Assembly: GCA_012517875.1 (NCBI GenBank)
Contig: JAAYUB010000092.1
Location: 51,121-115,120 of the forward strand
DNA from: Acidobacteriota bacterium
GTDB lineage: Bacteria > Acidobacteriota > JAAYUB01
Reading direction: 5' to 3'
DNA: 64,000 bases
Numbering within the stretch: position 1 is the stretch's first letter; each line of letters starts with the position of its first letter. Positions 1 to 51,180 of the stretch are shown in pieces. The position numbers were made by a program, and so were the translations under genes. Under the pieces are notes generated by a model. That model worked only from the letters and a program-made list of their open reading frames with translations. It searched no databases and was not told the DNA's origin.

Positions 1-46
1 AACGTTGGAATGTGTATAATCATGGTTTATGGCTCAGGAGCTGGCG

Positions 47-472
47 ATGGAACGGGATCGATTCTGCTTTTGTTGCGGGACGGACAATCCGCACGGTTTG
101 CAGCTGCGGATCGCGCATGACGAGTCGACCGGCCGAGTCTTCACTGAGTGCGTGCTGGCTGAGCGATATCAAGGCTACCGGGGCACCGTGCACGGGGGCC
201 TGCTGGCCACCCTGCTGGACGAGCTGATGGCCCACGCCGCGCTGCGGGTCGCTGGCGGACACGCGGCCACAGCCCGGATGGAGGTGGCCTTCCGCCGACC
301 GGTGCCGGTCGGGGAGCCCCTCCGGGTGGAGGCTGAAGCGGACAAGGTCTCCGGTCGCCGGATCCAGACGCGGGGCTGGATCGTGAACAGCCGTGGGGAG
401 CGCCTGGCCGAGGCCTCCGCCCTGTTTCTGGCCGTGTCCGCCGATGGATCTCCGAAGCCGGTGATGCGCTGA
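47..472 (+). CDS. PaaI family hotdog-fold thioesterase
   Basis: CFCCGTDNPHGL and 'YQGYRGTVHGGLLATLLDE' hotdog motifs; CAGGAG SD before ATG 47 (ORF track starts at 29). Confidence 0.9.
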   Translation: MERDRFCFCCGTDNPHGLQLRIAHDESTGRVFTECVLAERYQGYRGTVHGGLLATLLDELMAHAALRVAGGHAATARMEVAFRRPVPVGEPLRVEAEADKVSGRRIQTRGWIVNSRGERLAEASALFLAVSADGSPKPVMR

Positions 473-504
473 ATCCGTCGGCCACTGGTCGTCGCTAAAA
501 ATGC

Positions 505-533
505 TTGCATTCGGACCGCTTCTTGGCTATGAT
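505..533 (+). promoter_or_regulatory. sigma70-type promoter of tRNA-Ala
   Basis: TTGCAT (505-510), 17-nt spacer, TATGAT (528-533), 17 nt upstream of the tRNA. Confidence 0.7.
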
Positions 534-550
534 GCCGCCTTAAAATTTAT

Positions 551-626
551 GGGGCAATAGCTCAGTTGGAAGAGCGCGGCGTTCGCAATGCCGAGGTCGG
601 GGGTTCGAGACCCCCTTGCTCCACCA
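551..626 (+). tRNA. tRNA-Ala (anticodon CGC)
   Basis: Cloverleaf GGGGCAA...TTGCTCC-A-CCA; anticodon arm CGGCG-TTCGCAA-TGCCG; T-loop TTCGAGA; G3:U70 alanine identity pair; encoded CCA. Confidence 0.97.
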
Positions 627-631
627 TTTTC

Positions 632-661
632 GGAACGGCCCGTCAGGGTCGTTTCGTGTTT
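632..661 (+). terminator. possible weak intrinsic terminator after tRNA-Ala
   Basis: GGAACGGCCC-GTCA-GGGTCGTTTC hairpin followed by GTGTTT. Confidence 0.4.
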
Positions 662-669
662 ATCCCGAT

Positions 670-1314
670 ATGGTGACGCAGAAACCCAGAATCGAAATCA
701 CCGGCTTCAAGGCCCGCCACTACGACCGGCTGCTGGATCTGGTCAGCGCCGGCTATTACCGCCGTTTCCTCCGGCGGGTGCTGGACGACTTGGCCATCCA
801 ACCCGGCGAACGAATACTCGACCTGGGCGCAGGCACCGGCCGGCTGGCCGCCCAGATGGCACGGCGCACCGGCCCGGCGGGTCGGGTCGTCGGTGTCGAG
901 ATCGGCCCGGAGATGCAAGACTGCTTCCGGCGGCGGGCGGCGCAGCTCCCCAACATGGCCCTGGTGGAACGGCGCATCGACGAACCGCTGGACCTCGGGG
1001 AACTCTACGACCGGATTCTGATTTCCTTTGTGATGCATGGTCTCGAACACCACCAGCGTATTCTGGTCATCCAGAATGCCAGCGAGCTGCTGACCGCGGA
1101 CGGCTGGTTGTGCATCCTCGACTGGAATGAGCGCGGCCTGGCCGGCTTCAATCCGCTGGTGCGGCAGTTGTTTCAACGGTTCGAATGCGAACAGGCGCAG
1201 GACTTCATCGCCCGTGACTGGCGCACCATCCTCGCCGATTACCGGTTCGCCGACTTCCGGGCGTGGTATTATATGCGGGGTTACATCCGACTGCTGACCG
1301 GGCAGAGATACTGA
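670..1314 (+). CDS. class I SAM-dependent methyltransferase (UbiE-like)
   Basis: ILDLGAGTG motif I, VGVEI motif II, YDRILISFVMH; start placed at ATG 670. Confidence 0.85.
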   Translation: MVTQKPRIEITGFKARHYDRLLDLVSAGYYRRFLRRVLDDLAIQPGERILDLGAGTGRLAAQMARRTGPAGRVVGVEIGPEMQDCFRRRAAQLPNMALVERRIDEPLDLGELYDRILISFVMHGLEHHQRILVIQNASELLTADGWLCILDWNERGLAGFNPLVRQLFQRFECEQAQDFIARDWRTILADYRFADFRAWYYMRGYIRLLTGQRY

Positions 1315-1342
1315 CCGCGGTGCCGCCCGACGCGATGGACAG

Positions 1343-3379
1343 ATGAGAATCACGCATCACTTAGCAGTGTTCCTCGTCACCACCCTGTTCATGGTGTCGA
1401 TTTTCCTGCTGCTCTACAGCGCCACCCTGGCGTTCTCCGTCGCGCTCCTGCGAGACATCTTCGACGCCTTCCTCGGCATGCTCAGCCGGACGACGCTGGC
1501 CGACGCCGCACTCTGGCTCATCCAGTTGCGCGAATCGATCCACCCGAGCCTGCTGTTCATCGGATCGCTGGGCCTGACGATGCTGTTCCTCTATCTCGAA
1601 TACATCATCCTGTCGGGCCGGGACGAGCACCTCCGCCACCTGCCGCTCGAGCTGCAGGCGGACACGCTGATGCGCGAGGGCAGGCTCCGCCGTGCTCTGC
1701 GTCTGTACAAGCAGATCGGCCGGTGGGACCGGGCGGCGGAAATCTACCGCCAGCGTCGCCAGTATCCCCAGGCAGCGCGCATGCTGGAACACCTGGGCAA
1801 CGAGAGCCTCACCCGCGCCGGCGAATTGTACGAGGAGATGGGCCGGCTGGACCAGGCGCGCCGGGCGTACGCGGCGGCGGGCCAATACTTTTACCAGCGC
1901 CAAGAATGGGAGAAGGCCGCCAAGTACTATCTGAAGGCCGAGGACAAGGCGAGCGCGCTGGCGTGCTATGAGACGCACCTGCGCGATCTCCGGAGCCTCT
2001 ACCCCCCGGAGCAGCTCCGGGAACGCTGCCAGAAGATCGTCCAGTTGGCCGACCAGCTCGGGCTCCCTCTGAAGGCCGCCGCTTTCTGCGAGACCGCCCA
2101 GGACATCCCCGGCGCGGTGCAATACTACACGCAGGGGGGCAATTTCATCCGGGCGGCGGAATTGCTGCTGGCTGGTGGGGAAACCGACCAGGCGCTGAAA
2201 GTCATGGGCAAGATCACGGCGGATCACAAACAGTACACCGACAGTCTGGTGCTCATGGCCCGCCTTCACTTCCGCGATGAGCGCTACCAGGAATCGTTGA
2301 AACACTATGTCGAGTACTTCAAGCGGGTGAAACCTTCCGATACCACGCTGGAGGAGTTCTTCCAGATGGGCCTCTGCCTGGAAAAACTCGGCCGGCTCAA
2401 GCACGCCCGCGACGTGTATGCGCGGGTGCAGAGCATCCGGCCCTTTTTCATGAACGTCGATGAGCGCATCGACGCGATCGACCACAAAACCAGCGAGCCG
2501 GATGCGATGAAGGCGATGCTGGACCAGGATGCCGCCGCCAAGGATGCCGGGCTGTCCGACGATTTCCTGATCCGGTTGGGGGAGCGCTACACGGAACTGG
2601 AAGAAATCGGTCGCGGCGGCGCAGGGATCGTTTATAGCGCGCGGGACAAGATCCTCGATCGCACCGTCGCATTGAAAAAATTGCCCACCTCGGTCACCCA
2701 GGACCCGGCCCGCCTGCAGGCCTTTTTTTCGGAAGCCAAGGCCATCGCCAAGCTCAACCACCCCAACATCGTGGCCATCCACGACATCATCAAGGCAGAC
2801 AACGCCTACTTCATCGTGATGGAATTCATCCGGGGCACCACCGTCGAGCGGCTGCTGGAGGTCAAGGGCGCCCTGTCGCTCAAGCTGTCCCTGTATATCG
2901 CCCGGCACATGCTGCAGGCCCTGTCCTACGCCAACCGCAACGGCGTCAGCCACCAGGACATCAAACCGGCCAACATCATGCTCAGCGACGACAAGATCGT
3001 CAAGCTCACCGACTTCGGCATCGCCCGACTGTTCCACGAACTGCCCGGCCACTCCTCCGACATCGTCATGGGCACGCCCAAGTACATCTCGCCGGAGCAG
3101 CTCCAGGGATCCCCCGTCGACGAACGGTGCGACATCTATTCGTTCGGGATCACTTTTCACGAAATGCTCACCGGCACGCTCCCGTACCCCTTGGACGGCA
3201 TCCTCCACCACCACCTGGTCACTCCGCCCGTGCCGATCCGGTCCCACAACCCCTCGCTCCCGGTGGAACTGGAGCAGATCGTCCTGAAGTGCCTCGAAAA
3301 GGATCGCCAGCTCCGCTATCCGTCCGCCGCCGTGCTGCTCGAGGAGTTGAAAGCCGCCACGGCCCGGCCGCCGAACTGA
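1343..3379 (+). CDS. membrane-anchored TPR-repeat Ser/Thr protein kinase
   Basis: Two N-terminal hydrophobic helices, helical TPR-like region, C-terminal Hanks kinase ([35 protein letters not shown]). Confidence 0.93.
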
Positions 3380-3395
3380 TTCCCGGGAGACCGCC

Positions 3396-3815
3396 ATGCG
3401 CCACTATCGTCAGGAACTGACTTTCCAGACCCCAACCCGGATTGCCCTCGTCAACATCACGCCACAAGTGGCAGAAGCCGTCCGCGCCAGCGGTGTGCGG
3501 GAAGGACTGTGCCTGGTCAACGCGATGCACATCACCGCCTCCGTCTTCATCAACGACGACGAACCGGGCTTGCACCAGGACTATCAGGATTGGCTGGAAC
3601 AACTCGCGCCCCACAGCCCCACCGCGCGCTACCGCCACAATCGGACAGGCGAGGACAACGGCGACGCGCATCTCAAGCGTCAGATCATGGGGCGGGAGGT
3701 GGTCGTGGCCATCAGCGGGGGTGCGCTTGACTTCGGCCCCTGGGAGCAGATCTTTTACGGTGAGTTCGACGGACGCCGGCGCAAGCGGGTTCTGATCAAG
3801 ATCATCGGCGAGTGA
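3396..3815 (+). CDS. yjbQ: YjbQ family protein (UPF0047)
   Basis: [24 protein letters not shown] and [15 protein letters not shown] family motifs. Confidence 0.92.
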
Positions 3816-3837
3816 GATCCGGGCGCCGGTGCCGGTG

Positions 3838-6800
3838 TTACTCAGCCAGCCGGGCGGCCAGCAGGCGGCAATCCAGGGCATCGAGCGCGCCGGACCGGTT
3901 GAGATCGCCCATGTCCGGCCGGAGACAGGGCGGCTTGCCGGGCGCCAGGTTACCCACGACCAGGTGCAACAGCAGGCCCAGATCCCGGGCATCGGATCGA
4001 CCATCGCCGTCCAGATCGCCGTCGGGCTCCAGGACACAGCGGATTTCGCGGCCGCTCACCTGGACATCGTCCACGTACCAGCCGCCCGATCCCACCACCA
4101 GGTCACAGCCCAGGCGGAAGCGGATCTGGACCCTTTGGCCGCCGTATGCGGCGAGATCCACTTGGGTCTGGATGAACCCCTGGCTGTCGCCGGACCAGGC
4201 GGCGCGCCGGCCCAGCGGATTGAGCAGGAAGAAATCCAGCTCGTGCGTGTAGCCGCCGGCGCTCATCGCCGAACCGAGGTCGGCCCACGGCTCCGTGGCG
4301 GTCCGGATCTCCAGGACGCCGCCGTCGGACTCTGTCTCCAGGTCGTAATCGTGCCAGAAGGTCAATGCCGCACCTTCAGGCACTTCAAACCAGGGGCTCA
4401 GCAACGAGTTATCCTTGATGTTGTCTTCCGCGGGGGTGAACCAGCTGGTTGCCGGAGAATGGCTCCACCCGCCGACCTGCGACCAGTCGGTCACTCCCTG
4501 GTCGAGCAGGTGGCTCCACCCGCCCGCACCCGCCTCCACGTCGTCCGCAAACGTGATCCGGTCCACCTCTTCGCCCGCGAGCAGCGCCATCGGCTGCTCC
4601 CACTGCAGCGCGTCGCCCGCTTCGTTCCGGCATTCGATGGTCAACAGCCAGTCCAGTTGCGCGCCACAGGCCAGCGCATCATCCAGGATGACGTAGAACT
4701 CACCGGTCGCGACGGCACCGACCGCCAACGTGGAGTAACCACTGGCCGCGGGGTCAATCTGGACCTCCGGCATGCCGGTGGCCAGGCTGGCGGTGACATC
4801 CACGGCGGGATTCGTGCCGATGTTCTGCAGAGTCAGCTGCATGGTCACCGACTCGCCCGGTTCCGGGATCCCGTCGCCGTCGCCACCCCAAAATTGCCAG
4901 TCGGTCGGGACCACCACCGGTCCCACCACCGGCATGAAGCAGAGGCTGAGCCCGGGTTCCACCACCGGTTCGCGGCAGGCGAACTGAAGCCCTTTCGTTC
5001 CGTTGTAATCCTCGATCCCCACCGTGGCGTCGGCGCCGAAGTCATAGGCCGGGTCGCCGAACGCGGTGTCCTGGTAATTCAGGTGGATCTTGTGGGTCGA
5101 CTCCTCCAGCGCGACCTGGAACGTGACCGCCCCGACTTTGTTGTAATGCGCCACATTCAGCCAGGACACCACGAACAGCCGGTGGGGCGGCTGCCCGTCA
5201 ACCCGGTAGCGGATGGCCGCCCCCGGCTTGGTCAGGTCCAGGTCGGTCCAGAACGCCGCGATGACCGCGTTGGGATTCTCCGGCCGGGGGATCTGCGTGT
5301 TGCCGGCGTCCCAATCGTAGACGCCGGTGAAGCGGAGCAGTCCGTTCGTGGAGATCAGCACCTGTTCATACGTCTTGCCGTAGAACTTGAACGGGAACCC
5401 GATCGGTACGACCGCGCCCGCATCATCCTGGCCGGCCAGGACGGCCGCTCCACCCGCCGGCTCGATCCAGGCCGGGTCCTGCGTCTGCATCAGGTAGTCC
5501 ATCCGCTCCACCACCTCGCCCGAGACCACCTCCTGGTCGGCGGCCAGACCGGGCGCGCTGGCGAAAAACGTGATCTGGGCGCTGCTCGGGCCCGCCGGCA
5601 CCCACCGTCCGGTGAACAGCCCGTCATTTGCACGGACATCGGCGTCCGCACCGTCGTCGCTCAGGGTGAGGGTGCGCGTGCCCGCCGCATCCACCACCCG
5701 GGCGGTGACGTGCGGCTGGTCCACCGGTTCGGCGCAATCGGTGCCCACCACGGCGCCCAAGGTCACGTCATCACCGTCCATGACGACGAATCCACCTGCA
5801 GGCTGGTCGGGGACAAGCCGGACGGCTGTCGGAGTGCAGGTCCAGTGCAGGGCGGTCTCGGGACAGCCGAAGAGGGTGGTTTCAAAATAGACCCAACGGT
5901 AACTGCCGTCGCCGGCCAGGGCGGCCAGACGCTGACGGGATTCGTTCAGGGCAAGACCCAGATTGCGGCGGAACTGCTCGAACACGGATCGCATGTACTC
6001 GTGGTCAAACACGTTGGACGTGCCGTTGGTGCCGCCGGACGCGTACCAGCCGTAGCGCGTGTTCATCACCGCGGCGAACGCGGCGGCGGTGGTACCCACG
6101 GTCATCCGCTCGGCGAAACAGACGTCGTAGACGAAGTTCCCCGGGTAGCAACCCTGGCTGTACACAAAGAACGGACAGGTGTTGGTGAGCCGGCTGACAT
6201 CGGAGTTGTACAGCTTCAAGCAATAGGTGCTGTTGGCGTGCCCCAGGTGGTTGACGATGTGTGTGTCGTCGGTGTTGAAATAGGTGTCGATTAGCGTATC
6301 GGTCGACCACTCCGCACCCGGCGCGTCATACAGGCGCTCGGCGGGAATTCCGGCCATCGCCCCGTAAACGACATCCTTGCTGTCGCCGCCATAGGTCTGG
6401 TCGTCCAGCTTTTCGCCCAGCAGCAGCGTGCGGAAGGGTGGCGCAGAGTTCTCGTAAGCGATGATTTTCTGAATCTGGGTGGTCGCTTCCGTGGGGCTCG
6501 AGGCGGCGATGCGGCCCACTGCCACCTCCGCGAACAGGTCGGTCTCGTCGGCGGGCTCGCCGAACAGACTGTTGCCGTTCGCGTTCCAGTCGCCGTCGAG
6601 GGCGGCGAAATAGAGATCGGTGGGGATGGCGGTATCCACGGTGTCGCCGACCTTGCCATAGGTGCCCCGCCACGGGATGATCTCGCTGTCGCCGCCGAGC
6701 ACCACCCAGCGGGTGCCGTGGCTTTGGTATCCGGAAGTGATGAACGTGCGGAGCTTGTGCGCGCTGTCGGTGCCCGGCGTGGCGGCGAGGATGTCCTCGA

Positions 6801-7560
6801 TCCGGACGAGATGGACATTCAGACCCCGGCTTGTCTTGTGGTCGGCCAGCTCCTGAAAACTGGTTTCCAGCGCCGCGTTCGTCACGATCAGGTACTCCCA
6901 TGCCGTGTCCAGCGATTTCTTCTCCGGCGGAGCGTAACCGTCCAAAGTCGCAGGATTGTCCACGAGCGCGGCCACATCCGCCCGGTCATCCGCCAGTGGG
7001 CGCCGCATGGGCGCGGCCTTGGCCCGCGGCTCCGGCGCCAGCGTGAGCACAAGCCGCATCCGGGGGATAAACTGCAGCTCACCGGCGGCCGGGTAGTACA
7101 CCACCGGATGCAGCGTGAAGAGGGCGACCGGATACCCCTTCAGCCACTGCACGCCGGCCGCTGAGGCGCGGGCGGCGGGAAACGGTCCGGGTGTGTCGTA
7201 AATCCTCGGGTCGGGCGCCACCGCTTCGATGCCGGCCCCCGCTGTGGGGAACAGGCCGGGGCAATGGGAAACCCGGACCGGTCGACCCAACAATACCGGT
7301 GCCTCGGCCTTGAGGTCGAACCCCGCCAGGCGGAATCCGGCAGGGAGGAGTACCCGACCGGTGAACACCGGCAGCATGGGCTGGCCGGGCTCCAGCGAGT
7401 CCGGGCAACCGGCGATCCGGACGTCCACCCGGCCGTCCGGGTGCCGCTCCAGCCGCGGCCGCTCGAAGCGGTATTCCAGCACGAGTTCCTCCGCGGCCAT
7501 CCAGGCCGCGAAGAGATACAGCAGGACCAGCACACCAGCCATCCGTCTCATGAGCACCAT
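3838..7560 (-). CDS. secreted gingipain-like C25 cysteine peptidase with accessory domains and C-terminal dockerin
   Basis: Signal peptide, C25 propeptide, EYLIVT...WVVLGGD, TDLYFAALDGDW, VAVGRI, catalytic His (NHLGHAN) and Cys (YSQGCYPG); then choice-of-anchor-X-like (LSDDGADADVRANDGLFTG), nidogen-like (IGFPFKFYG...ISTNG...AFWTDL), adhesin-like beta module and dockerin; start ATG 7560 or nearby. Confidence 0.9.
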   Translation of the reverse strand: MVLMRRMAGVLVLLYLFAAWMAAEELVLEYRFERPRLERHPDGRVDVRIAGCPDSLEPGQPMLPVFTGRVLLPAGFRLAGFDLKAEAPVLLGRPVRVSHCPGLFPTAGAGIEAVAPDPRIYDTPGPFPAARASAAGVQWLKGYPVALFTLHPVVYYPAAGELQFIPRMRLVLTLAPEPRAKAAPMRRPLADDRADVAALVDNPATLDGYAPPEKKSLDTAWEYLIVTNAALETSFQELADHKTSRGLNVHLVRIEDILAATPGTDSAHKLRTFITSGYQSHGTRWVVLGGDSEIIPWRGTYGKVGDTVDTAIPTDLYFAALDGDWNANGNSLFGEPADETDLFAEVAVGRIAASSPTEATTQIQKIIAYENSAPPFRTLLLGEKLDDQTYGGDSKDVVYGAMAGIPAERLYDAPGAEWSTDTLIDTYFNTDDTHIVNHLGHANSTYCLKLYNSDVSRLTNTCPFFVYSQGCYPGNFVYDVCFAERMTVGTTAAAFAAVMNTRYGWYASGGTNGTSNVFDHEYMRSVFEQFRRNLGLALNESRQRLAALAGDGSYRWVYFETTLFGCPETALHWTCTPTAVRLVPDQPAGGFVVMDGDDVTLGAVVGTDCAEPVDQPHVTARVVDAAGTRTLTLSDDGADADVRANDGLFTGRWVPAGPSSAQITFFASAPGLAADQEVVSGEVVERMDYLMQTQDPAWIEPAGGAAVLAGQDDAGAVVPIGFPFKFYGKTYEQVLISTNGLLRFTGVYDWDAGNTQIPRPENPNAVIAAFWTDLDLTKPGAAIRYRVDGQPPHRLFVVSWLNVAHYNKVGAVTFQVALEESTHKIHLNYQDTAFGDPAYDFGADATVGIEDYNGTKGLQFACREPVVEPGLSLCFMPVVGPVVVPTDWQFWGGDGDGIPEPGESVTMQLTLQNIGTNPAVDVTASLATGMPEVQIDPAASGYSTLAVGAVATGEFYVILDDALACGAQLDWLLTIECRNEAGDALQWEQPMALLAGEEVDRITFADDVEAGAGGWSHLLDQGVTDWSQVGGWSHSPATSWFTPAEDNIKDNSLLSPWFEVPEGAALTFWHDYDLETESDGGVLEIRTATEPWADLGSAMSAGGYTHELDFFLLNPLGRRAAWSGDSQGFIQTQVDLAAYGGQRVQIRFRLGCDLVVGSGGWYVDDVQVSGREIRCVLEPDGDLDGDGRSDARDLGLLLHLVVGNLAPGKPPCLRPDMGDLNRSGALDALDCRLLAARLAE
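3841..4023 (-). other. type I dockerin-like domain (C-terminus of C25 peptidase)
   Basis: Duplicated Ca-binding loop-helix: GDLDGDGRSDARDLGLLLHLVVG ... GDLNRSGALDALDCRLLAARL. Confidence 0.85.
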
Positions 7561-7696
7561 CCTGACGGCGACATGGCTTCATTGTATGCTAAGCGTCGGC
7601 GGGGCGCACAACAATTCATGCCAGAAAAAACTGTGGGGCGGCGGACGACCGCTCGCCGCGCCATCCCCACGTGCTGCCGTCGGTCGCGGCCGGCCG

Positions 7697-9052
7697 TCAG
7701 AACCGGTAGATGAACGTGCCCTGGGCGCGGACGCTCTGGCCCTCGTTCAAGTCGACGTAGCGGGTCCACCAGGGCGAAACTTCCAGGCCCACCTGGACCG
7801 CGCTGGTGATGCTGTAGAAGAAATTGCCGAACAGCGCCATGTTGCGCGAGCGGTTGCCGGAGGCCAGGTCGCGGTTGACCGGGTCGTCCACGGCGCCGCC
7901 CAGGTTGAACTTCCACCCCTTCCACGGACCGAAGCCCACGGCGGCCCAGCCACCGATGCTGCGGATCTCATTGAGCCGGGCTTTGTTGAAGCCCTGGCCC
8001 ACCGCCGCCAGGTAGGTGTCGACATTGGCGCCGCGCCAGAACTCGCCCTGCAGCGTCACGCCCTTGGCCAGCGGCAGCTGGGCGTCCAGACCCCACGAAT
8101 ACGTGTCGAGGTCCACGCTGTTGCCGGCGGCGTCCAGGTCGTACTCCTCCTGGCCCCAGTGGCCGTACACGCCCACCGTCGCCTTGCGCTTCTCGCCGAA
8201 GGGCAGCGTCAGCGCCAGTCGGCTCTGGACGGTGGGGAAGCCGGCGTCCTCGCCGCCGTCGCCCGGATCGTAACCGGAGGTGTGGCCGATGGTCCGGACG
8301 AACGCGCCCTGGAGCTGCAGCTTGGTGTCGCCGCCCAGATCGAATCCCTTGGTCAGCCGGAACTGCGGCCGGCGGTAGCCCGGATTGCCGGTCCACCACA
8401 TCACGGTGTAGTTGATGGTGTCGGGCAGCAGCGGCGCGATCACGTCCGAGGTCTGGCCGGCCAGCAGGCTGAAGTCATGCTCCGGCCACTCCAGCTTCAC
8501 GAACGCGTGACGCAGCATCGGCTGGGGCTTGTTCTCGCCGCCCTCCAGGCTGTAGAAGTCGATCTCGACGTTGCCGGTGGTCTTGATCGCGCCGGTGGCC
8601 GGCCCGTTGATATTGAGCCCCACCCGGGTCTGGTTGGCGGTCATGTTGAATTCATCGTCCTTGCCACCGGGCCCCTCGGGGAGCACCCACCGGGCGAAGT
8701 CACCCACGTCGGTCCGGGCGGTGTCGTAGGCGGCGTCCAGTTTGACGAAGCCGTACAGTTCCACGGCCGGTTTCTTTTTGGCTGCCGCTTCGTCCGCTTT
8801 CGCGACGGCGGCCGGTGCCGGCGCCGCAGCGGGGGTCGGGGCGGGCGCGGGAGCCGGGACGGCCGCCGGCTCGCGGAGCGCCAGCTGCCGCACCTCCGCG
8901 ATCGCCACCTCGAGCTGGCGGATCTTCTCCCGCAGCTCCAAATTTTCCTTCTTGAGCGCCTGGAGCTCGTCCTGCACGGAGGCTCCCTGGCCCGGCACAC
9001 AGCCGGCCGCGAGGCACAGCCACAGTCCGGCGATGATGAGAGGGTTACGCAT
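7697..9052 (-). CDS. DcaP family outer-membrane porin
   Basis: Signal peptide, N-terminal coiled coil and Pro/Ala linker, VELYGFVKLDAAYD, TRVGL..., EIDF, LRHAF, GQT beta-barrel motifs, terminal aromatic residue (YRF). Confidence 0.8.
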   Translation of the reverse strand: MRNPLIIAGLWLCLAAGCVPGQGASVQDELQALKKENLELREKIRQLEVAIAEVRQLALREPAAVPAPAPAPTPAAAPAPAAVAKADEAAAKKKPAVELYGFVKLDAAYDTARTDVGDFARWVLPEGPGGKDDEFNMTANQTRVGLNINGPATGAIKTTGNVEIDFYSLEGGENKPQPMLRHAFVKLEWPEHDFSLLAGQTSDVIAPLLPDTINYTVMWWTGNPGYRRPQFRLTKGFDLGGDTKLQLQGAFVRTIGHTSGYDPGDGGEDAGFPTVQSRLALTLPFGEKRKATVGVYGHWGQEEYDLDAAGNSVDLDTYSWGLDAQLPLAKGVTLQGEFWRGANVDTYLAAVGQGFNKARLNEIRSIGGWAAVGFGPWKGWKFNLGGAVDDPVNRDLASGNRSRNMALFGNFFYSITSAVQVGLEVSPWWTRYVDLNEGQSVRAQGTFIYRF

Positions 9053-9208
9053 GGCGGATACTCCTTATCGATAATTGGATCTCTTCATGTCCTGTCTTCG
9101 GCCCGCCCGAAAAACATGGCGGCGACACAATGCGATCGGTTACAATCAAGCGGCGACTTCAAAGAGCCGCCAACGGACCCGTCATTCGTCACCCAGGAGG
9201 CAGACACC

Positions 9209-9676
9209 ATGGCCGACCAGCAACTCAAGACCGTGCTCGAGCGTGCCATCAAAAACGAGGAGGATGCTCACACCTTCTACACCCACCTGCACGATATCGT
9301 CCAGGACACCACCGCCCGGGAGGCCCTGCGGTTCCTGGCGGCCGAGGAACTGCGCCACAAGGAGTTCCTCGTCAACTACCTCGAGGGCCGGGTGGCGGCA
9401 AACAGCCTGTCCACCGACCAGGTGATCGATTACGGCGTCGCCCAGTACAACGACAAGCCGGACATCCAGAAAGACCTGGGCACCGCCGAGGTCTTCCTGG
9501 TGGCGGCCCACCGCGAGTGGAACGCGCACAAATTCTACCAGGGGCTCGCGGCTCTCCAGCCGGAGGGCGAAGTCAAACAACTGCTCACCGAGTTCGCCGC
9601 GCAGGAGCTCCGGCACAAGGAGAAGGTGGAGTACCTGTACAGCAACACCGCCTTCCCCCAGACCGCCGGCGGTTGA
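9209..9676 (+). CDS. rubrerythrin-like ferritin-fold diiron protein
   Basis: Two E...ExxH half-sites (NEEDAHTFY/AEELRH; REWNAHKFY/AQELRH); GGAGG SD; no rubredoxin domain. Confidence 0.85.
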   Translation: MADQQLKTVLERAIKNEEDAHTFYTHLHDIVQDTTAREALRFLAAEELRHKEFLVNYLEGRVAANSLSTDQVIDYGVAQYNDKPDIQKDLGTAEVFLVAAHREWNAHKFYQGLAALQPEGEVKQLLTEFAAQELRHKEKVEYLYSNTAFPQTAGG

Positions 9677-9695
9677 TCACCCGCCGACAGCCGGC

Positions 9696-11531
9696 TCAGT
9701 GAGTCCGGCCGGGCCGATAATACTGGTGCAGCGACCGGTCGCAGGCCGGGCAGGTATGCCCGGGCCGGCAGTGGTCTTCAAACTCGCCGCGAAACGCCTT
9801 CAACAGGGTGGTCAGCGGAACGATCGGCGACTGGCCCAGCGCACAGAATGAGGCCTTTTTCATCAGTTGGGCCTTTTCCAGCATCTGGTCCAGTTCCGCC
9901 GGCGCCGCCCGCCGCTCCGCCAGTCGGCGCGCGTGGTGGTGGAGTTGCGCGGTGCCCACCCGGCAGGGGATGCACTGGCCGCAGGATTCATGCTCAAAGA
10001 AGGCCATGGTCTGCAGCAGGAAATCCACCGGACAGGTGGTGTCGTCGCACACCAGCACCACGCCCGAGCCCAGGGTGACCCCGTGCTTCATCGGCGTGTC
10101 GATATCCAGAGGCAGGTCCAGCAGCTCGCCGGTCAGGATCCCGCCGGAGCTGCCGCCGACCTGGGCGAACTTGAACGGGCGGCCGTCGCGGATCCCCTGT
10201 CCGTACACGTCGATGATCTCGCGCAGTGTGGCGCCCATGGGCAGTTCCACCAGACCGGTCCGATTCAACCGGCCGGACAGGCAGAACAGCTTCGTGCCGG
10301 GACATGAGACCGGACCCACTTCCTTGAACCAATCGGCGCCCCGGTCGAGGATCAGGGGAACCGACATCAACGTCTCGACGTTGTTGACCGTGGACGGCAG
10401 GTTCCGGAAGCCGGCCTGGCCGGGGAAGGGCGGCTTGAAGCGCGGATAGCCGCGCAGCCCTTCCATCGAGTTGATCAGCGAGGTCTCTTCGCCGCAGACG
10501 TAGGCACCGCCGCCTTCTTTGATGAAGACATCAAAGCTGAACGCCGTGCCAAAGAGATTCGTCCCGAGACAGCCTTTGGCCCGGGCCTCGTCGATCGCGT
10601 GCTGCAACGTGTCGATGGAGCGCCGGTATTCGCCGCGGACATAGATGTATCCGATCGTGGCGCCGGTGGCGAAGCCGCAGATGGCCATGCCCTCCAGCAG
10701 CAGGTGGGGATTGCCCTCCATCAGTACCCGGTCCTTGAAGGTGCCGGGTTCGCCCTCGTCGGCATTGCAGATCACGAACTTCTGCATCGAACCCTTCACC
10801 ACGAACGACCATTTCAGGCCGGCGGGGAAGCCGGCGCCGCCACGGCCGCGCAACCCTGACTCCTTGACCACGGCGATGACGTCCGCCGGCGTCATGGCGA
10901 CGGCTTTGCGCAGGGCCGCGTAGCCGCCGAGTCTGATGTAGCTGTTGATCCGCGCGGGATTGACGCGCCCGATATCGGCCAGCAACCGGCGGGTCTGCCG
11001 CGGATCATCGATGATCGTGGCCGCCGCGGCCGTTTCACGCCCGGACCCCTGGCCGTCGGCCGCCGCCGACTCCCGGTACGACCGGATGATCCGGGCCAGC
11101 CGCCGCCGAGTCAGATTCCCGTGCAGGTCATAATTGACCATCATGGCCGGGGCCACCGAACAGATCCCCAGACACTCGCACCGCTCCAGGTAGAAGAGGC
11201 CGTCCGGCGTGGCTTCGCCATCGCCGATACCCAGCAGCTTGTGCAGCGATTCGAACACATCAATGGCGCCGGCCGTGTGGCACGGCGTCGACTTGCAGAC
11301 CCGGATCACGTAGCGGGCGCGCGGGGCGGTCCGGAACATGGTGTAAAAATCCACAAAACCGGCGATGGCGCTGGCGGGGAGGTTCATTTCCTCGGCCACC
11401 TTGCGCAGCGTGGCGGGATCGAGACAGTTGCATCCGGACCGAGTCTCCAGCTCCCGCAGGATCAGCATCAGATGCTCCTGCCGGCGACCGAATTTCGCCA
11501 CCACCTCGCGGATGTCAGGCGTCATGCTCAT
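9696..11531 (-). CDS. fused NuoE-NuoF-type NADH/FMN-binding (diaphorase) subunit of formate dehydrogenase
   Basis: N-terminal thioredoxin-like 2Fe-2S (CKSTPC...CLGIC), GLRGRGGAGFP, CNADEGEPGTFKDR, GAYVCGEET, CGQCIPCRVG; start overlaps fdh stop (ATGA). Confidence 0.92.
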   Translation of the reverse strand: MSMTPDIREVVAKFGRRQEHLMLILRELETRSGCNCLDPATLRKVAEEMNLPASAIAGFVDFYTMFRTAPRARYVIRVCKSTPCHTAGAIDVFESLHKLLGIGDGEATPDGLFYLERCECLGICSVAPAMMVNYDLHGNLTRRRLARIIRSYRESAAADGQGSGRETAAAATIIDDPRQTRRLLADIGRVNPARINSYIRLGGYAALRKAVAMTPADVIAVVKESGLRGRGGAGFPAGLKWSFVVKGSMQKFVICNADEGEPGTFKDRVLMEGNPHLLLEGMAICGFATGATIGYIYVRGEYRRSIDTLQHAIDEARAKGCLGTNLFGTAFSFDVFIKEGGGAYVCGEETSLINSMEGLRGYPRFKPPFPGQAGFRNLPSTVNNVETLMSVPLILDRGADWFKEVGPVSCPGTKLFCLSGRLNRTGLVELPMGATLREIIDVYGQGIRDGRPFKFAQVGGSSGGILTGELLDLPLDIDTPMKHGVTLGSGVVLVCDDTTCPVDFLLQTMAFFEHESCGQCIPCRVGTAQLHHHARRLAERRAAPAELDQMLEKAQLMKKASFCALGQSPIVPLTTLLKAFRGEFEDHCRPGHTCPACDRSLHQYYRPGRTH

Positions 11532-14245
11532 TGGCCACCCCCCAGCGGATACACCTTTTCCACCTTGCAGGCGCACACCTTGAACTCCGGAATCTTGCAG
11601 CCGGGATCCAGCGCGTCGATGGTCAGTGCGTTGGCGCACGCCTCGGCAAAGTGGAACGGGATGAAGACCACGCCGGGTTTGATCTCCGGTTTGATCCGGA
11701 TCTTCAGCCGGATACTGCCCCGGCGCGTGGAGACAGCAGCGATCTCCCCGTCAGCGAGCTCCAGGTTCTGGGCGTCATGCGGGTTGATCTCCACGTATGG
11801 CTCAGCCACAATTTCGTTCAGGATTTTGGAATTGCGGCTCATCGTGCCGGTGTGGAAATGTTCCAACAGCCGGCCGGTGGTCAGCGCCAGCGGGTACTCG
11901 GGATCCACCTCCTCGGCGGGTGGCGTATACTCGATGGCCGTGAGCAGGCCGAGGCCGCGCGTAAAGCGGTCCTTGTGCAGGTACTGGGTGCCCGGATGGC
12001 CCGGCGTCGGGCAGGGCCACTGGAGCAATTCCTTTTCAATCCGTTCGTACGTCATGCCGGCATACGACGGGGTTAACCGGCGGATTTCCTCAAAGATCTC
12101 CTCGGCGCTCGCATAGTTCCAACCGGCACCCAGTCGGTTGGCCAGCTGCTGAATGATCCACCAGTCCTCGCGGGCGTCACCGGCGGGTTCGACAACCCGG
12201 CGCATGAGCTGCACGCGCCGTTCGGTGTTGGATACGGTGCCCTCCTTTTCGAGGAAGGCATAGCCGGGCAGGACCACGTCGGCATACTGAGCCGTCTCGG
12301 TCAGGGTGATGTCCTGGACGACGAGGCAATCGAGCTTCTCCAGCGCTTCGATGACGTGGTGCTGGTTGGGATCGGACAGGACCGGGTTTTCACCCATCAC
12401 ATAGAGCGCCCGCACCTGACCCGCGATGGCCGCATTCATCGACTCGACGATCGTCAGCCCGGGCTTATCCGGCAGGCCGCTCACGCCCCAGGCCTGTTCC
12501 ACCTTCTGCCGCGCTTCGGGATTGGTCACCGGCTGATAGGCGGTGAAGACGTTGGGCAGGCCGCCCATGTCGCAGGCTCCCTGGACGTTGCTCTGGCCGC
12601 GCAGCGGGTTGACGCCGCCGCCCGGCACGCCAATGTTGCCCAGCAGCATCTGGAGGTTGGAGACGGATTTCACTCCGTTGACGCCGGACTTGAACTGGGT
12701 GATGCCCATGCAGTAGTACACCGCCATTGGCTTGGCCGCCGCCAGCAGGCGGGCGGCGGTGACGATCTGCTCCGGATCCGCCAGTCCGCAGATGCCGGCG
12801 ACGTGCTCGGGGGTGTACTTCTGCAGGACACCCTCGAGCTCGGCGAACCCCTCGCAGCGGGCCTTCACATATTCGGCGTCATGCAGCCCCTCGCGCAGGA
12901 TGACGTGCATCAGGCCATTGAGCAGGGCGATGTTGGTGCCCGGCCGGATCTGCAGAAACACATCGGCATAGCGGGCCAGTTCGATCCGGCGGGGATCGGC
13001 GACAACGAGCTTCTTGTTGCCGCGGATGACCGCCTTCTTGATCATGGCCCCGATGACGGGGTGGTTTTCCGTGGTGTTGGAACCGATGACGAAGAACGCC
13101 TCCGAGATCGGAATCTCCCGGATGGAGTTGGTCATGGCTCCCGAGCCCAGTGTGGCCGCCAGACCGGCGACCGTGGAGCTGTGTCAAAGCCGGGCGCAGT
13201 GATCGACATTGTTGGTGCCGATCACCGCGCGCATGAATTTCTGCAGCAGGTAGTTTTCCTCGTTGGTGCACTTGGCCGAGGTGAAGGCCATGACGGCGTC
13301 AGGCCCGTGTTCGGCCTTGATCCGGCCAAATGCTCCGGCGGCGCGGTCCAGCGCCTCGTCCCACGTGGCGGGGACCAGTTCGCCGTCTTTGCGGACCAGC
13401 GGCTGGGTCAGGCGCTTGGGGCTCTGGACGAAGTCGAACCCGAACCGACCCTTGACGCACAGGTGCCCTTCGTTGGGGCCGTCCAACGCGCCCTCGGCCT
13501 TGACCAGCTGGCCGTCCCTGTTGGTGAAGAAATCAATCTTGCAGCCGACGCCGCAATAGATGCAGATGCTGGATCTCCTGGTCAACTCCCACGCCTGGCC
13601 GCGGCCGAGCACCGTCTGGAACGACAGCGCGCCGGTGGGGCAAAGCTGCACGCATTGACCGCACTGGACGCAGTCGGATTCGCCCAGCACGTCGGTGATG
13701 CCGGTGGTCAGGTGGGCGTGGCTGCCGCGCCCGGCAAAATCCCACACCCGGTTCATCTGGATTTCACCACAGGCCTTGACGCAGCGGCCGCAGAGCACGC
13801 AGCGGTTCTCCTCTCGCCGCAGCCCCTCGCTGGAGGACACGTCGCGGGACCGCACGTTGCGGGGCAACCCCGCCGGCGGCGGCGTGTCCAGCCCGTGCTC
13901 GTGGCACAGCGCCTGGAGTTCACAACCTCCGTTCGCCTCGCAGTAGAGGCAGTTATGATCCCCCTCGGCCAGGAGGAATTCAAGAATCCCCCGGCGCATG
14001 GCGGTGATCTCCGGATCCGCCGTCACGATTTTCATCCCATCGGCCACCGGTTCGGTGCAGGCGGTCTTGAACATCGTCTGGTTGACCCGAACCAGGCAGA
14101 TCCGGCAGGCGCCCGTGCGGCTGATCTGCGGGTGGTAGCAGAGCGTGGGGATGCGCACCCCCTCCGCCCGCGCCACGTCGAGGATGGTCTGCCCGCGCCG
14201 GCACTCCACCTCCCGACCGTTGAGCGTGATCTTGATGGTTGGCAT
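11528..14245 (-). CDS. fdhA: selenocysteine-containing formate dehydrogenase alpha subunit (905 aa, U354)
   Basis: ORFs 13184..14245 and 11528..13135 are in frame and join through TGA at 13186-13184, giving [27 protein letters not shown]; NuoG-like FeS N-terminus, CIYCGVGC, LRGQSNVQG and molybdopterin dinucleotide-binding C-terminus. Confidence 0.96.
13154..13172 (-). promoter_or_regulatory. bacterial SECIS hairpin
   Basis: GGUCGCC-GGUCU-GGCGGCC starts exactly 11 nt after the UGA, the same spacing and GGUCUG apex as the E. coli fdhF SECIS. Confidence 0.88.
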
Positions 14246-44360: not shown

Positions 44361-44485
44361 GGCGACACCAGCGAAAAGGGTTGCAACCCGATCGTCCCAT
44401 ACGGTATCAATATAAGCTTCGACGCAATCGCTTTTGTGCTAACATGCTTTTGTAATTTTTGAGAAAAAAGGTTGAGGGTATCTCC

Positions 44486-46411
44486 ATGAAGAAGTTTGCG
44501 CTGGGTTTCACACTTTTAGCTGCGCTCGGTGCCGCCGTGGCAGCCCAGGGTGGACCATTTTCCGGCAACGCCGAGGTCTACCTCCAGCTCACCCCGGCGA
44601 CGCCCGCCATCAACAGCACGTTCGAGGTGGACCTGTATGTGGACTTGACCGGGATCACCGGCTCGGGATCCACGCCGGCGGCGCTGGGCGGATTCGCCAT
44701 CCCGGTCGCCTTTGACAACTCCCGGCTGACTTTGATATCTGTCGAGGCAGGCACCAGCGGTGCCTTCACGGCCGGCGACCTGGTTTTCACCGACCTGCCC
44801 CGCGCCAACGCCCGCGGATTCGTCACTGTGGTAAACACGCAGACGGCTTCGGGCACGCCCACCGGCATTGTCCACGTGGCCACGCTGACCTTCCAGACGG
44901 GTCCCCAGGGGGGCCGGGTTCATTTCAACGTCAACTCCGCCCGCACCATCCACGAGGGATCGCTGGCCTCGACCTACACCGCCGCCAACGGCGGGCCGGA
45001 TGAGATTCCTTACGACGATGAAACCGCCCTGGCCACCATCGCGACCGGGGGCGTCTCCTACAGCATCTACTATCCAGTTTTCATCTCCGGCGACGCCGAC
45101 TTCATGGGCGTCACCGTGGTCAACGAGGGCGTCGCCACGGAAAACCTGAACTTCCGGGCTTACAATCCCGCCGGCCAGCTCATCACCCAAGCCGGCATGA
45201 CCAACCCCAACGTGAGCGACAACCCCCTGGCTCCGCTTCAGCAGTATGTCCGCATGAGTCACAACCTTTTCGGCAGCTCCGGCGCGCTGGACATTGAACA
45301 TGGCTGGATCGAGGTGACCGCCAACGAACACAACCTGAGCGGCTTCTTCCTGATCGGCCACATTGAGGGCGCTGACATCACCCAGATGGATGGCGCCGAA
45401 GTGGGTCACCAGGTCGCCTCCCGAGTGATCTTCCCGGTCCTGGGCAAGGACGCCGCCCGCGACACCGACCTGTACGCGATTAATCCCGGCACGACCGCCG
45501 CCGCCGGCAACCTGCTGATGAAAGACAACCTCGGCAATACCGTCCAAACCATTCCCGTCAACATCCCGGCGCACGGTGTGTACGAGGGCACTTTTACCGC
45601 GAACACCCTGGACCGCTACTTCGACCTCACCCTGACCTCCGGCGAGGTGTTCGGTTTCCAGCTGTTCGGCAACGCCAACGCCCTGGCCGGACTCAACGCC
45701 CAGGCAGCGGCGGACACGACGGCTAACATCCTGTACGACGCCCACTTCGCCTCCGGCAACTACGGGATCCGCTATTTCACGGAAATCAATGTGATCAACG
45801 CCTCCGCCCAGGTGGCCAACCTCACCCTCCACCTGATCAATGACGCGGGCAGCGAGATCGTCACTCCCGTCGCCCGCACCCTCAATCCCGGCGCCCAGCT
45901 CCGTGTGATGGGGCACACCCTGTTCGGGTTGCCCGATCCGCTGACCGCCGCGGATGGCGTGAGCGGATCGGTCATGATCGAGAGTGATCAGGGTGTGGTT
46001 GGATCCATCACCTTCGGTGATGCTCAGAACGGCCTTTTCCTGGCCAGCCTGCCGCTGCTGTCCACTTCGGCCGCCAAGCGCGAAATCTATCTGGACCACG
46101 TGGCGATCGGTCTGATCGGTACGGTCAACTACTGGACGGGCATCGCGCTGGTCAATCCCAGCCGGACTCGCACCGCCTCCATCAACCTCCAGCTTTACGA
46201 TCAGAACGGCAACCTGACGGCTCAAACGGCCACGCCGGTCGAGCTGGCTCCCGGTCAGCGCACGTCGCGCATGCTCCCTAGCTTCTTCCCGGGATTCAGC
46301 GGCAACCAGTTCGGCGGCTTCGTCCGGCTGACTTCGGATGTCGAGGTGTTCTCCTTCATGCTCTTCGGCGATGTCAGCCTGAACTTTCTTGCGGCGGTGC
46401 CGGTTCGGTAA
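44486..46411 (+). CDS. secreted protein: cohesin-like domain plus four tandem beta-sandwich repeats (candidate surface scaffold)
   Basis: Signal peptide MKKFALG...AVAA; cohesin-like FEVDLYVD...LGGFAIPVAFDNSRLTLISVEAG...GIVHVATLTFQ; four 100-115-aa repeats sharing G(I/V)xxVN(P)...LxLxDxxG...LxPG.Q...LF...GFxLFG; GAGGG SD. Confidence 0.75.
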   Translation: MKKFALGFTLLAALGAAVAAQGGPFSGNAEVYLQLTPATPAINSTFEVDLYVDLTGITGSGSTPAALGGFAIPVAFDNSRLTLISVEAGTSGAFTAGDLVFTDLPRANARGFVTVVNTQTASGTPTGIVHVATLTFQTGPQGGRVHFNVNSARTIHEGSLASTYTAANGGPDEIPYDDETALATIATGGVSYSIYYPVFISGDADFMGVTVVNEGVATENLNFRAYNPAGQLITQAGMTNPNVSDNPLAPLQQYVRMSHNLFGSSGALDIEHGWIEVTANEHNLSGFFLIGHIEGADITQMDGAEVGHQVASRVIFPVLGKDAARDTDLYAINPGTTAAAGNLLMKDNLGNTVQTIPVNIPAHGVYEGTFTANTLDRYFDLTLTSGEVFGFQLFGNANALAGLNAQAAADTTANILYDAHFASGNYGIRYFTEINVINASAQVANLTLHLINDAGSEIVTPVARTLNPGAQLRVMGHTLFGLPDPLTAADGVSGSVMIESDQGVVGSITFGDAQNGLFLASLPLLSTSAAKREIYLDHVAIGLIGTVNYWTGIALVNPSRTRTASINLQLYDQNGNLTAQTATPVELAPGQRTSRMLPSFFPGFSGNQFGGFVRLTSDVEVFSFMLFGDVSLNFLAAVPVR

Positions 46412-51069: not shown

Positions 51070-51180
51070 CGGATGACCGTCCGCGCGGAATCCAGTCCGC
51101 ATTGTAGCCCCGCCTCCACCCCAAAGGCAAACGCCAACTATTTTCGAACACCGGCCGACTCATCCGTTATTAATTAATGA

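Follow-up and report, generated by a model that had tools for sequence, protein, structure and literature searches.

We followed up a prediction, made from the sequence alone, about one gene in a window of 64,000 nucleotides (positions 51,121 to 115,120 of contig JAAYUB010000092.1, GenBank assembly GCA_012517875.1) that belongs to the metagenome-assembled genome (MAG) of an uncultured digester Acidobacteriota (4.02 Mb, 182 contigs, ~96% complete). A single uninterrupted open reading frame (ORF) of 1240 amino acids occupies positions 3838-7560 on the reverse strand, and we read its product as a secreted cysteine peptidase of family C25 that docks, through a C-terminal dockerin, onto divergent cohesin-like proteins encoded in the same genome. 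We give this combined reading a probability of about 0.6. Its parts differ in strength: that the protein is a secreted C25 peptidase carrying a true dockerin is highly probable, and that the tail docks to the cohesin-like proteins, where the argument runs through structure models, stands at even odds. The features that carry the reading are:

3838..7560, reverse strand: the whole gene (1240 aa, probable start 7551), for a multidomain cysteine peptidase of family C25 that is secreted and ends in a dockerin
5854..6894, reverse strand: Peptidase_C25 catalytic domain, residues 223-569 (Pfam E-value 3.4e-51, 175.1 bits)
6238..6240, reverse strand: codon of the catalytic His441 (second His of HLGHANS), opposite RgpB His211 in the phmmer alignment to 1cvr/4ief
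6148..6150, reverse strand: codon of the catalytic Cys471 (Cys of SQGCYPG), opposite RgpB Cys244 in the same alignment
3847..4020, reverse strand: dockerin module, residues 1181-1238, with Ca loops at 3982-4017 and 3871-3906 and a helix after each
44459..46411, forward strand: 650-aa secreted protein, 37 kb away, a candidate docking partner with an N-terminal cohesin-fold domain (44552-45052) followed by a beta-rich tail

The Peptidase_C25 match (cut-off 23 bits) covers profile positions 1-372 of 374, and both the His and the Cys motif are kept in orthologues P0002-P0013, which bears out the original prediction of an intact catalytic dyad. In the same low-identity phmmer alignment, which is unreliable in that stretch, RgpB Glu152 faces a Tyr and Asp163 lies in a gap; because the equivalents of these two residues cannot be placed, we assign no P1 (Arg versus Lys) specificity. 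Set beside RgpB and Kgp of Porphyromonas gingivalis (MEROPS C25), the protein shares the peptidase family, the catalytic His/Cys, what is probably a prodomain at the N-terminus, and a beta domain behind the catalytic one; it differs in its very low similarity (25-28 bits to PDB chains 1cvr/4ief) and in the addition of NIDO, MAM and dockerin modules. In four further C25 paralogues of the genome (sites C71:3-4049, C146:5205-7556 and C180/C21 of genome G000) long N-terminal regions come first and the catalytic domain sits at the very C-terminal end, and none of the four carries a dockerin.

The tail has the two-loop ending that had been claimed for it, with a first Ca loop DLDGDGRSDARD (residues 1182-1193) and a second DLNRSGALDALD (residues 1219-1230), each of 12 residues with D/N/S at positions 1, 3, 5, 9 and 12. 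When the profile check that accompanied the original prediction was run, Peptidase_C25 returned the score given above and the isolated 74-aa tail marginally passed Dockerin_1 (PF00404), at 24.0 bits against a cut-off of 22.9; the same profile was matched by 12/13 orthologue tails, with a best E-value of 7e-9. Thirteen tail columns are invariant across orthologues down to 35% identity, including the loop Asp and Gly residues, Cys1175 and Cys1212, and a hidden Markov model (HMM) built from the orthologue tails alone finds the ORFs of the genome in which Pfam calls dockerins. The tail structure prediction that had also been proposed gave an AlphaFold (AF2) model with a loop-helix-linker-loop-helix layout (helices at model residues 25-35 and 62-73), a paired arrangement and not an isolated EF-hand, and the best 16 Foldseek PDB matches of this model are all dockerins (TM-scores 0.31-0.50), with calmodulin at rank 17. 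From the sequence conservation and the model together, we hold with high confidence that the tail is a genuine dockerin.

The module is of a dockerin subtype marked by the linker GN[IL]xxGxxPC, common to three or four other proteins of the genome. Carriers of the subtype are a beta-lactamase-fold hydrolase (C160), an uncharacterised protein (C2) and an internal module (C10), with an M14 carboxypeptidase (C26) as a looser member without the PC motif. Its cysteines are invariant before repeat 1 (Cys1175) and in the inter-repeat linker (Cys1212), usually with a third in helix 2 (Cys1231), a pattern that suggests disulfide stapling. This Cys-linker subtype might give specificity for one of two cohesin types.

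A docking reading calls for a cohesin, and Pfam finds no match above cut-off on the 650-aa protein, whose beta-rich remainder gives a faint DUF5719 match. The AF2 model of its 44552-45052 domain has a pLDDT (predicted local distance difference test) of 88.7 and a pTM (predicted template modelling score) of 0.85, and the best 29 Foldseek matches of this model are cohesins, with E-values from 1e-7 to 4e-5 and TM-scores of 0.55-0.70 when normalised by the query and up to 0.80 when normalised by the target. As modelled, the domain is a cohesin fold, and we therefore dropped the reading that the genome lacks a cohesin, to which blank Pfam and phylum-HMM searches had pointed. An orthologue of the 650-aa protein in the same order (G008:C75) passes the Pfam Cohesin cut-off. 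The family HMM also finds a second copy in the genome of the window (C162:22896-23231, E-value 3e-12), on a secreted protein of ~226 aa in which a signal peptide and a Pro-rich linker accompany a single cohesin-like domain, with orthologues in most genomes of the order. The same HMM gives one domain in each of these two proteins and no multi-cohesin scaffoldin. The expectation of a cohesin partner thus stood in part: the genome encodes two secreted single-cohesin-like proteins, and neither a multi-cohesin scaffold nor a Pfam cohesin was found. Three genomes of the same family have a dockerin-bearing ORF within 1-8 kb of a cohesin-like gene (G005:C31:102271-104080, G007:C22:22304-25685 and G004:C59:23147-31551), which hints that the two kinds of gene are occasionally linked.

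We compared 31 Acidobacteriota genomes, 10 of the order to which the window belongs and 21 others. The cohesin-like family is present in 10/10 genomes of the order (1-4 copies) and in 0/21 of the others, and dockerins number 12-60 per genome in the order as against 0-10 elsewhere in the phylum. A full-length orthologue of the C25-dockerin protein occurs as a single copy in 8 of the 10 genomes of the order, and 19/31 genomes of the phylum have a match to Pfam Cohesin. At the level of gene content, this pattern fits a lineage-specific cohesin-dockerin system.

The genome-wide count of dockerin-bearing hydrolases that had been called for returned at least 20 other ORFs whose Dockerin_1 score exceeds the Pfam cut-off, making at least 21 with the C25 protein. 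Pfam cargo scans covered 18 of these other ORFs, and half of them (9/18) bear a peptidase or serine-hydrolase domain (C1, M6, M14, M28, M36, S8, S15 or beta-lactamase-fold); the remaining cargo comprises glycoside hydrolase (GH) domains of families GH44 and GH114, a beta-helix protein, a lipase-like protein, a lactonase-type propeller and a protein with a family 96 carbohydrate-binding module (CBM96). The C25 protease is itself one ordinary cargo among about twenty.

The remaining parts of the protein, from the N-terminus to the tail, are:

7492..7560, reverse strand: predicted Sec-type signal peptide MVLMRRMAGVLVLLYLFAAWMAA, read from the sequence, with equivalent hydrophobic N-termini in orthologues
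6895..7491, reverse strand: N-terminal region, residues 24-222, a probable prodomain (Propeptide_C25 below cut-off; PF08126 on orthologues)
5593..5670, reverse strand: choice-of-anchor-X-like motif, residues 631-656, in the beta domain after the catalytic domain (NF041940, 26.3 bits against 25)
5074..5361, reverse strand: nidogen-like (NIDO) domain, residues 734-829 (PF06119, 25.1 bits against a cut-off of 25)
4048..4887, reverse strand: beta-sandwich and MAM cassette, residues 892-1171 (NF038112 region match, E-value 3.8e-30)

Propeptide_C25 scores 13.5 bits against a cut-off of 22 in the full protein, and PF08126 is precomputed for orthologues P0009-P0011 and P0013; a prodomain is the probable assignment for this region. 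The nidogen-like and choice-of-anchor-X-like modules named in the original prediction are present at threshold-level scores, and precomputed Pfam matches on orthologues support NIDO (found on P0002, P0003 and further C25 relatives) as well as MAM, for which the InhA-like model (PF20773, residues 1038-1168) scores 26.3 bits, just under its cut-off of 26.9. Between the catalytic domain and the dockerin lie four beta-rich accessory modules (Ig/choice-of-anchor-X-like, NIDO, beta-sandwich and MAM), for which binding of substrate or matrix is the probable role. By NCBIfam, residues 892-1171 are similar to the C-terminal portion of M36 metallopeptidases. The beta-sandwich-MAM-dockerin cassette is common to an M36 ORF on C5 (37% identity over 358 aa, BLASTP), and an M6 ORF on C119 of the same genome shares it as well (33% over 284 aa, BLASTP); its recurrence on M36 and M6 proteins indicates module shuffling among secreted peptidases.

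Bacteroidota gingipains carry a C-terminal domain (CTD) for the type IX secretion system (T9SS). Por_Secre_tail has no match anywhere in the genome of the window, in a search whose control matched below cut-off in two genomes, and the claim that a dockerin takes the place of the T9SS signal on this protein was upheld, as the tail is a dockerin and no such signal was found. As the window's protease has no T9SS CTD, it would not be anchored through anionic lipopolysaccharide (A-LPS). PF18962 is found on many C25 relatives from Cloacimonadota, Eisenbacteria, WOR-3 and related phyla, so that lineages differ in the address module at the C-terminus. The genome encodes two secretins, and export of the protease may possibly follow a secretin pathway.

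The reading frame and its source were also considered. Translation probably starts at Met4 (position 7551), since the sequence AGGA precedes it by 8 nt and both of the nearest orthologues have a length of 1237 aa. The gene is covered without indels in contigs of four public digester and sludge runs, which are independent metagenome assemblies, and the frame is therefore not an assembly artefact. At position 7164 all four public runs have the base C, not A. The nearest public loci, 82-91% identical, belong to Acidobacteriota MAGs whose sources are sludge digesters and one anaerobic membrane bioreactor.

A number of observations weigh against our reading, and they favour different rival explanations. 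For the tail, the Dockerin_1 score in the full-length scan is sub-threshold (16.7 bits), the model is of moderate confidence (pLDDT 68), its Foldseek E-values of 0.2-3 include none reaching 0.001, and a few of the orthologue tails give some match to EF-hand and FG-GAP models too, all of which would suit a chance pair of EF-hand-like DxDxDG motifs without a dockerin fold. We consider such a coincidence highly improbable, given that it would have to produce the 13 invariant columns, the reciprocal recovery of true genome dockerins by HMM, and a modelled loop-helix pair with nothing other than dockerins among its top 16 structural neighbours; on the same grounds an isolated EF-hand was rejected. 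A more substantial challenge, which we nonetheless judge unlikely, is that the tail is genuinely dockerin-like and does not dock to a cohesin, but helps in a Ca-dependent way to stabilise or fold the protein, or binds another ligand, for example a polysaccharide, a component of the S-layer or the outer membrane, or a different dockerin protein. To our knowledge, many non-cellulosomal dockerins are without a known partner. Pfam Cohesin has no match in the genome of the window or in three genomes of its genus (of which one is 100% complete), an HMM made from six Acidobacteriota cohesins and searched with --max also returned nothing in the window's genome, at least 21 dockerins face only two single-cohesin-like proteins, and the dockerin is N-terminal or internal in some ORFs (GH114, a lipase-like protein and an ORF on C10). 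The candidate partners add points of their own against our reading: a profile of 18 orthologous N-terminal domains has cohesin as its sole PDB match, weakly (E-value 0.21), the hhalign comparison with Acidobacteriota cohesins, in register over 111 columns, is likewise weak (E-value 0.0016, probability 16%), and we found neither an anchor domain by Pfam on the 650-aa protein nor a lipobox Cys in the signal peptide of either protein. Moreover, the co-occurrence of the two families is confined to one clade and therefore counts as one evolutionary event. Set against a non-docking tail are the confidently modelled cohesin fold in the same window and a cohesin-like family that tracks the dockerin expansion exactly over the 31 genomes.

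The remaining rival concerns the enzyme and not its tail. Family C25 includes PorU, and instead of digesting protein the domain could act in processing, or as a transpeptidase like PorU, to mature or attach other secreted proteins, the dockerin cargo possibly among them. In keeping with such a role, NCBIfam shows a weak likeness to the PorU sortase (NF033707, 40.2 bits), and the gene is conserved across the order as a single copy. We think it improbable, because this score is far below the cut-off of 420, there are no T9SS CTD substrates and no SprA match, and the substrate-binding-type modules and dockerin match the other hydrolase cargo, including the M36/M6 cassette. The T9SS argument has a weakness that tells against us too: SprA_N had no match in the genome, in a search that matched in no control genome, and with controls under cut-off the absence of a T9SS is drawn mainly from the lack of CTD tails. 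Expression adds nothing in favour of our reading of a secreted, docking C25 protease, as the public libraries X4 and X5, labelled METAGENOMIC RNA-Seq, show flat depth over genes and spacers like the DNA runs (window positions 1-14000) and are probably DNA; we therefore did not count them as transcription of the C25 gene.

The combination itself is not new, and the novelty implied by the original prediction was overstated. For Ca. Stygibacter (Cloacimonadota), a C25 peptidase of gingipain type that ends in a dockerin has been reported and proposed to be part of a cellulosome-like complex; the organism also encodes a multi-cohesin scaffoldin, 3,755 aa long, that bears a CTD of T9SS type (Williams et al. 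2021, PMC8542988). Both cases, inferred from genomes only, combine a signal peptide, C25 and a C-terminal dockerin in an uncultured anaerobe, and in both the other dockerin cargo mixes peptidases with glycoside hydrolases; the genome of the window differs in belonging to Acidobacteriota, in having no T9SS signal and no Pfam cohesin, and in encoding two single-cohesin-like proteins. What is specific here is thus the phylum, a cohesin family invisible to Pfam, and the fact that neither a T9SS nor a scaffoldin was found. A direct search of the literature for Acidobacteriota cohesin-dockerin systems, or for Peptidase_C25 with a dockerin, gave nothing specific.

With the type I pairs of C. thermocellum (1ohz/2ccl) the system shares a two-repeat Ca-binding dockerin and, for the candidate partner as modelled, the jelly-roll cohesin fold, and the same two folds recur in the non-cellulosomal pairs of Archaeoglobus fulgidus (2xdh) and C. 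perfringens NagH/NagJ (2ozn). It differs from cellulosomal and non-cellulosomal pairs alike in its mainly proteolytic cargo, its diderm host, its single, Pfam-invisible cohesin per protein, and the GN[IL]xxGxxPC linker with its extra cysteines.

Directly upstream of the protease, the gene at 7697-9052 (reverse strand) has a product with a signal of lipoprotein type (LAAGC), a coiled coil, a linker of Ala and Pro, and a Phe-ending barrel, with a faint match to the DcaP outer-membrane protein (17.9 bits). No conserved operon partner was found, as the neighbours differ among the contigs of distant orthologues, and we therefore rejected this DcaP-like barrel gene as a linked partner. Downstream lie a tetratricopeptide repeat (TPR)-Ser/Thr protein kinase (1343-3379, forward strand) and a UPF0047/YjbQ-family protein (3396-3815, forward strand), with no evident link to the protease. 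Farther off, a formate-dehydrogenase-like molybdopterin enzyme (11528-14245, reverse strand) is split into two ORFs at ~13135/13184, to judge by its sequence probably by an in-frame TGA selenocysteine codon.

In the mechanism that we propose, the protein would be a zymogen-type cysteine endopeptidase exported by Sec, which would then cross the outer membrane, possibly by a secretin-based pathway. Its dockerin would plug Ca-dependently into one of the two divergent single-cohesin secreted proteins (44459-46411 or C162:22896-23231), and the docked protease would be held with other dockerin-tagged hydrolases in an extracellular protein-scavenging assembly. We extend this only tentatively to the whole anaerobic Acidobacteriota order, which may have a mainly proteolytic cohesin-dockerin system with 12-60 tagged exoenzymes docking on single-cohesin proteins that databases do not recognise; such an order-wide system would result in a diderm 'proteolysome' scavenging sludge protein. 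If the docking is real, cohesin-dockerin assembly reaches the protein-degrading secretome of a diderm phylum abundant in digesters and soils, and lineages can exchange the C-terminal address tag of their C25 peptidases, which is a T9SS CTD in phyla of the Fibrobacterota-Chlorobiota-Bacteroidota (FCB) group and a dockerin here. Since this cohesin family is missed by Pfam surveys, 'dockerins without cohesins' may often be a detection artefact.

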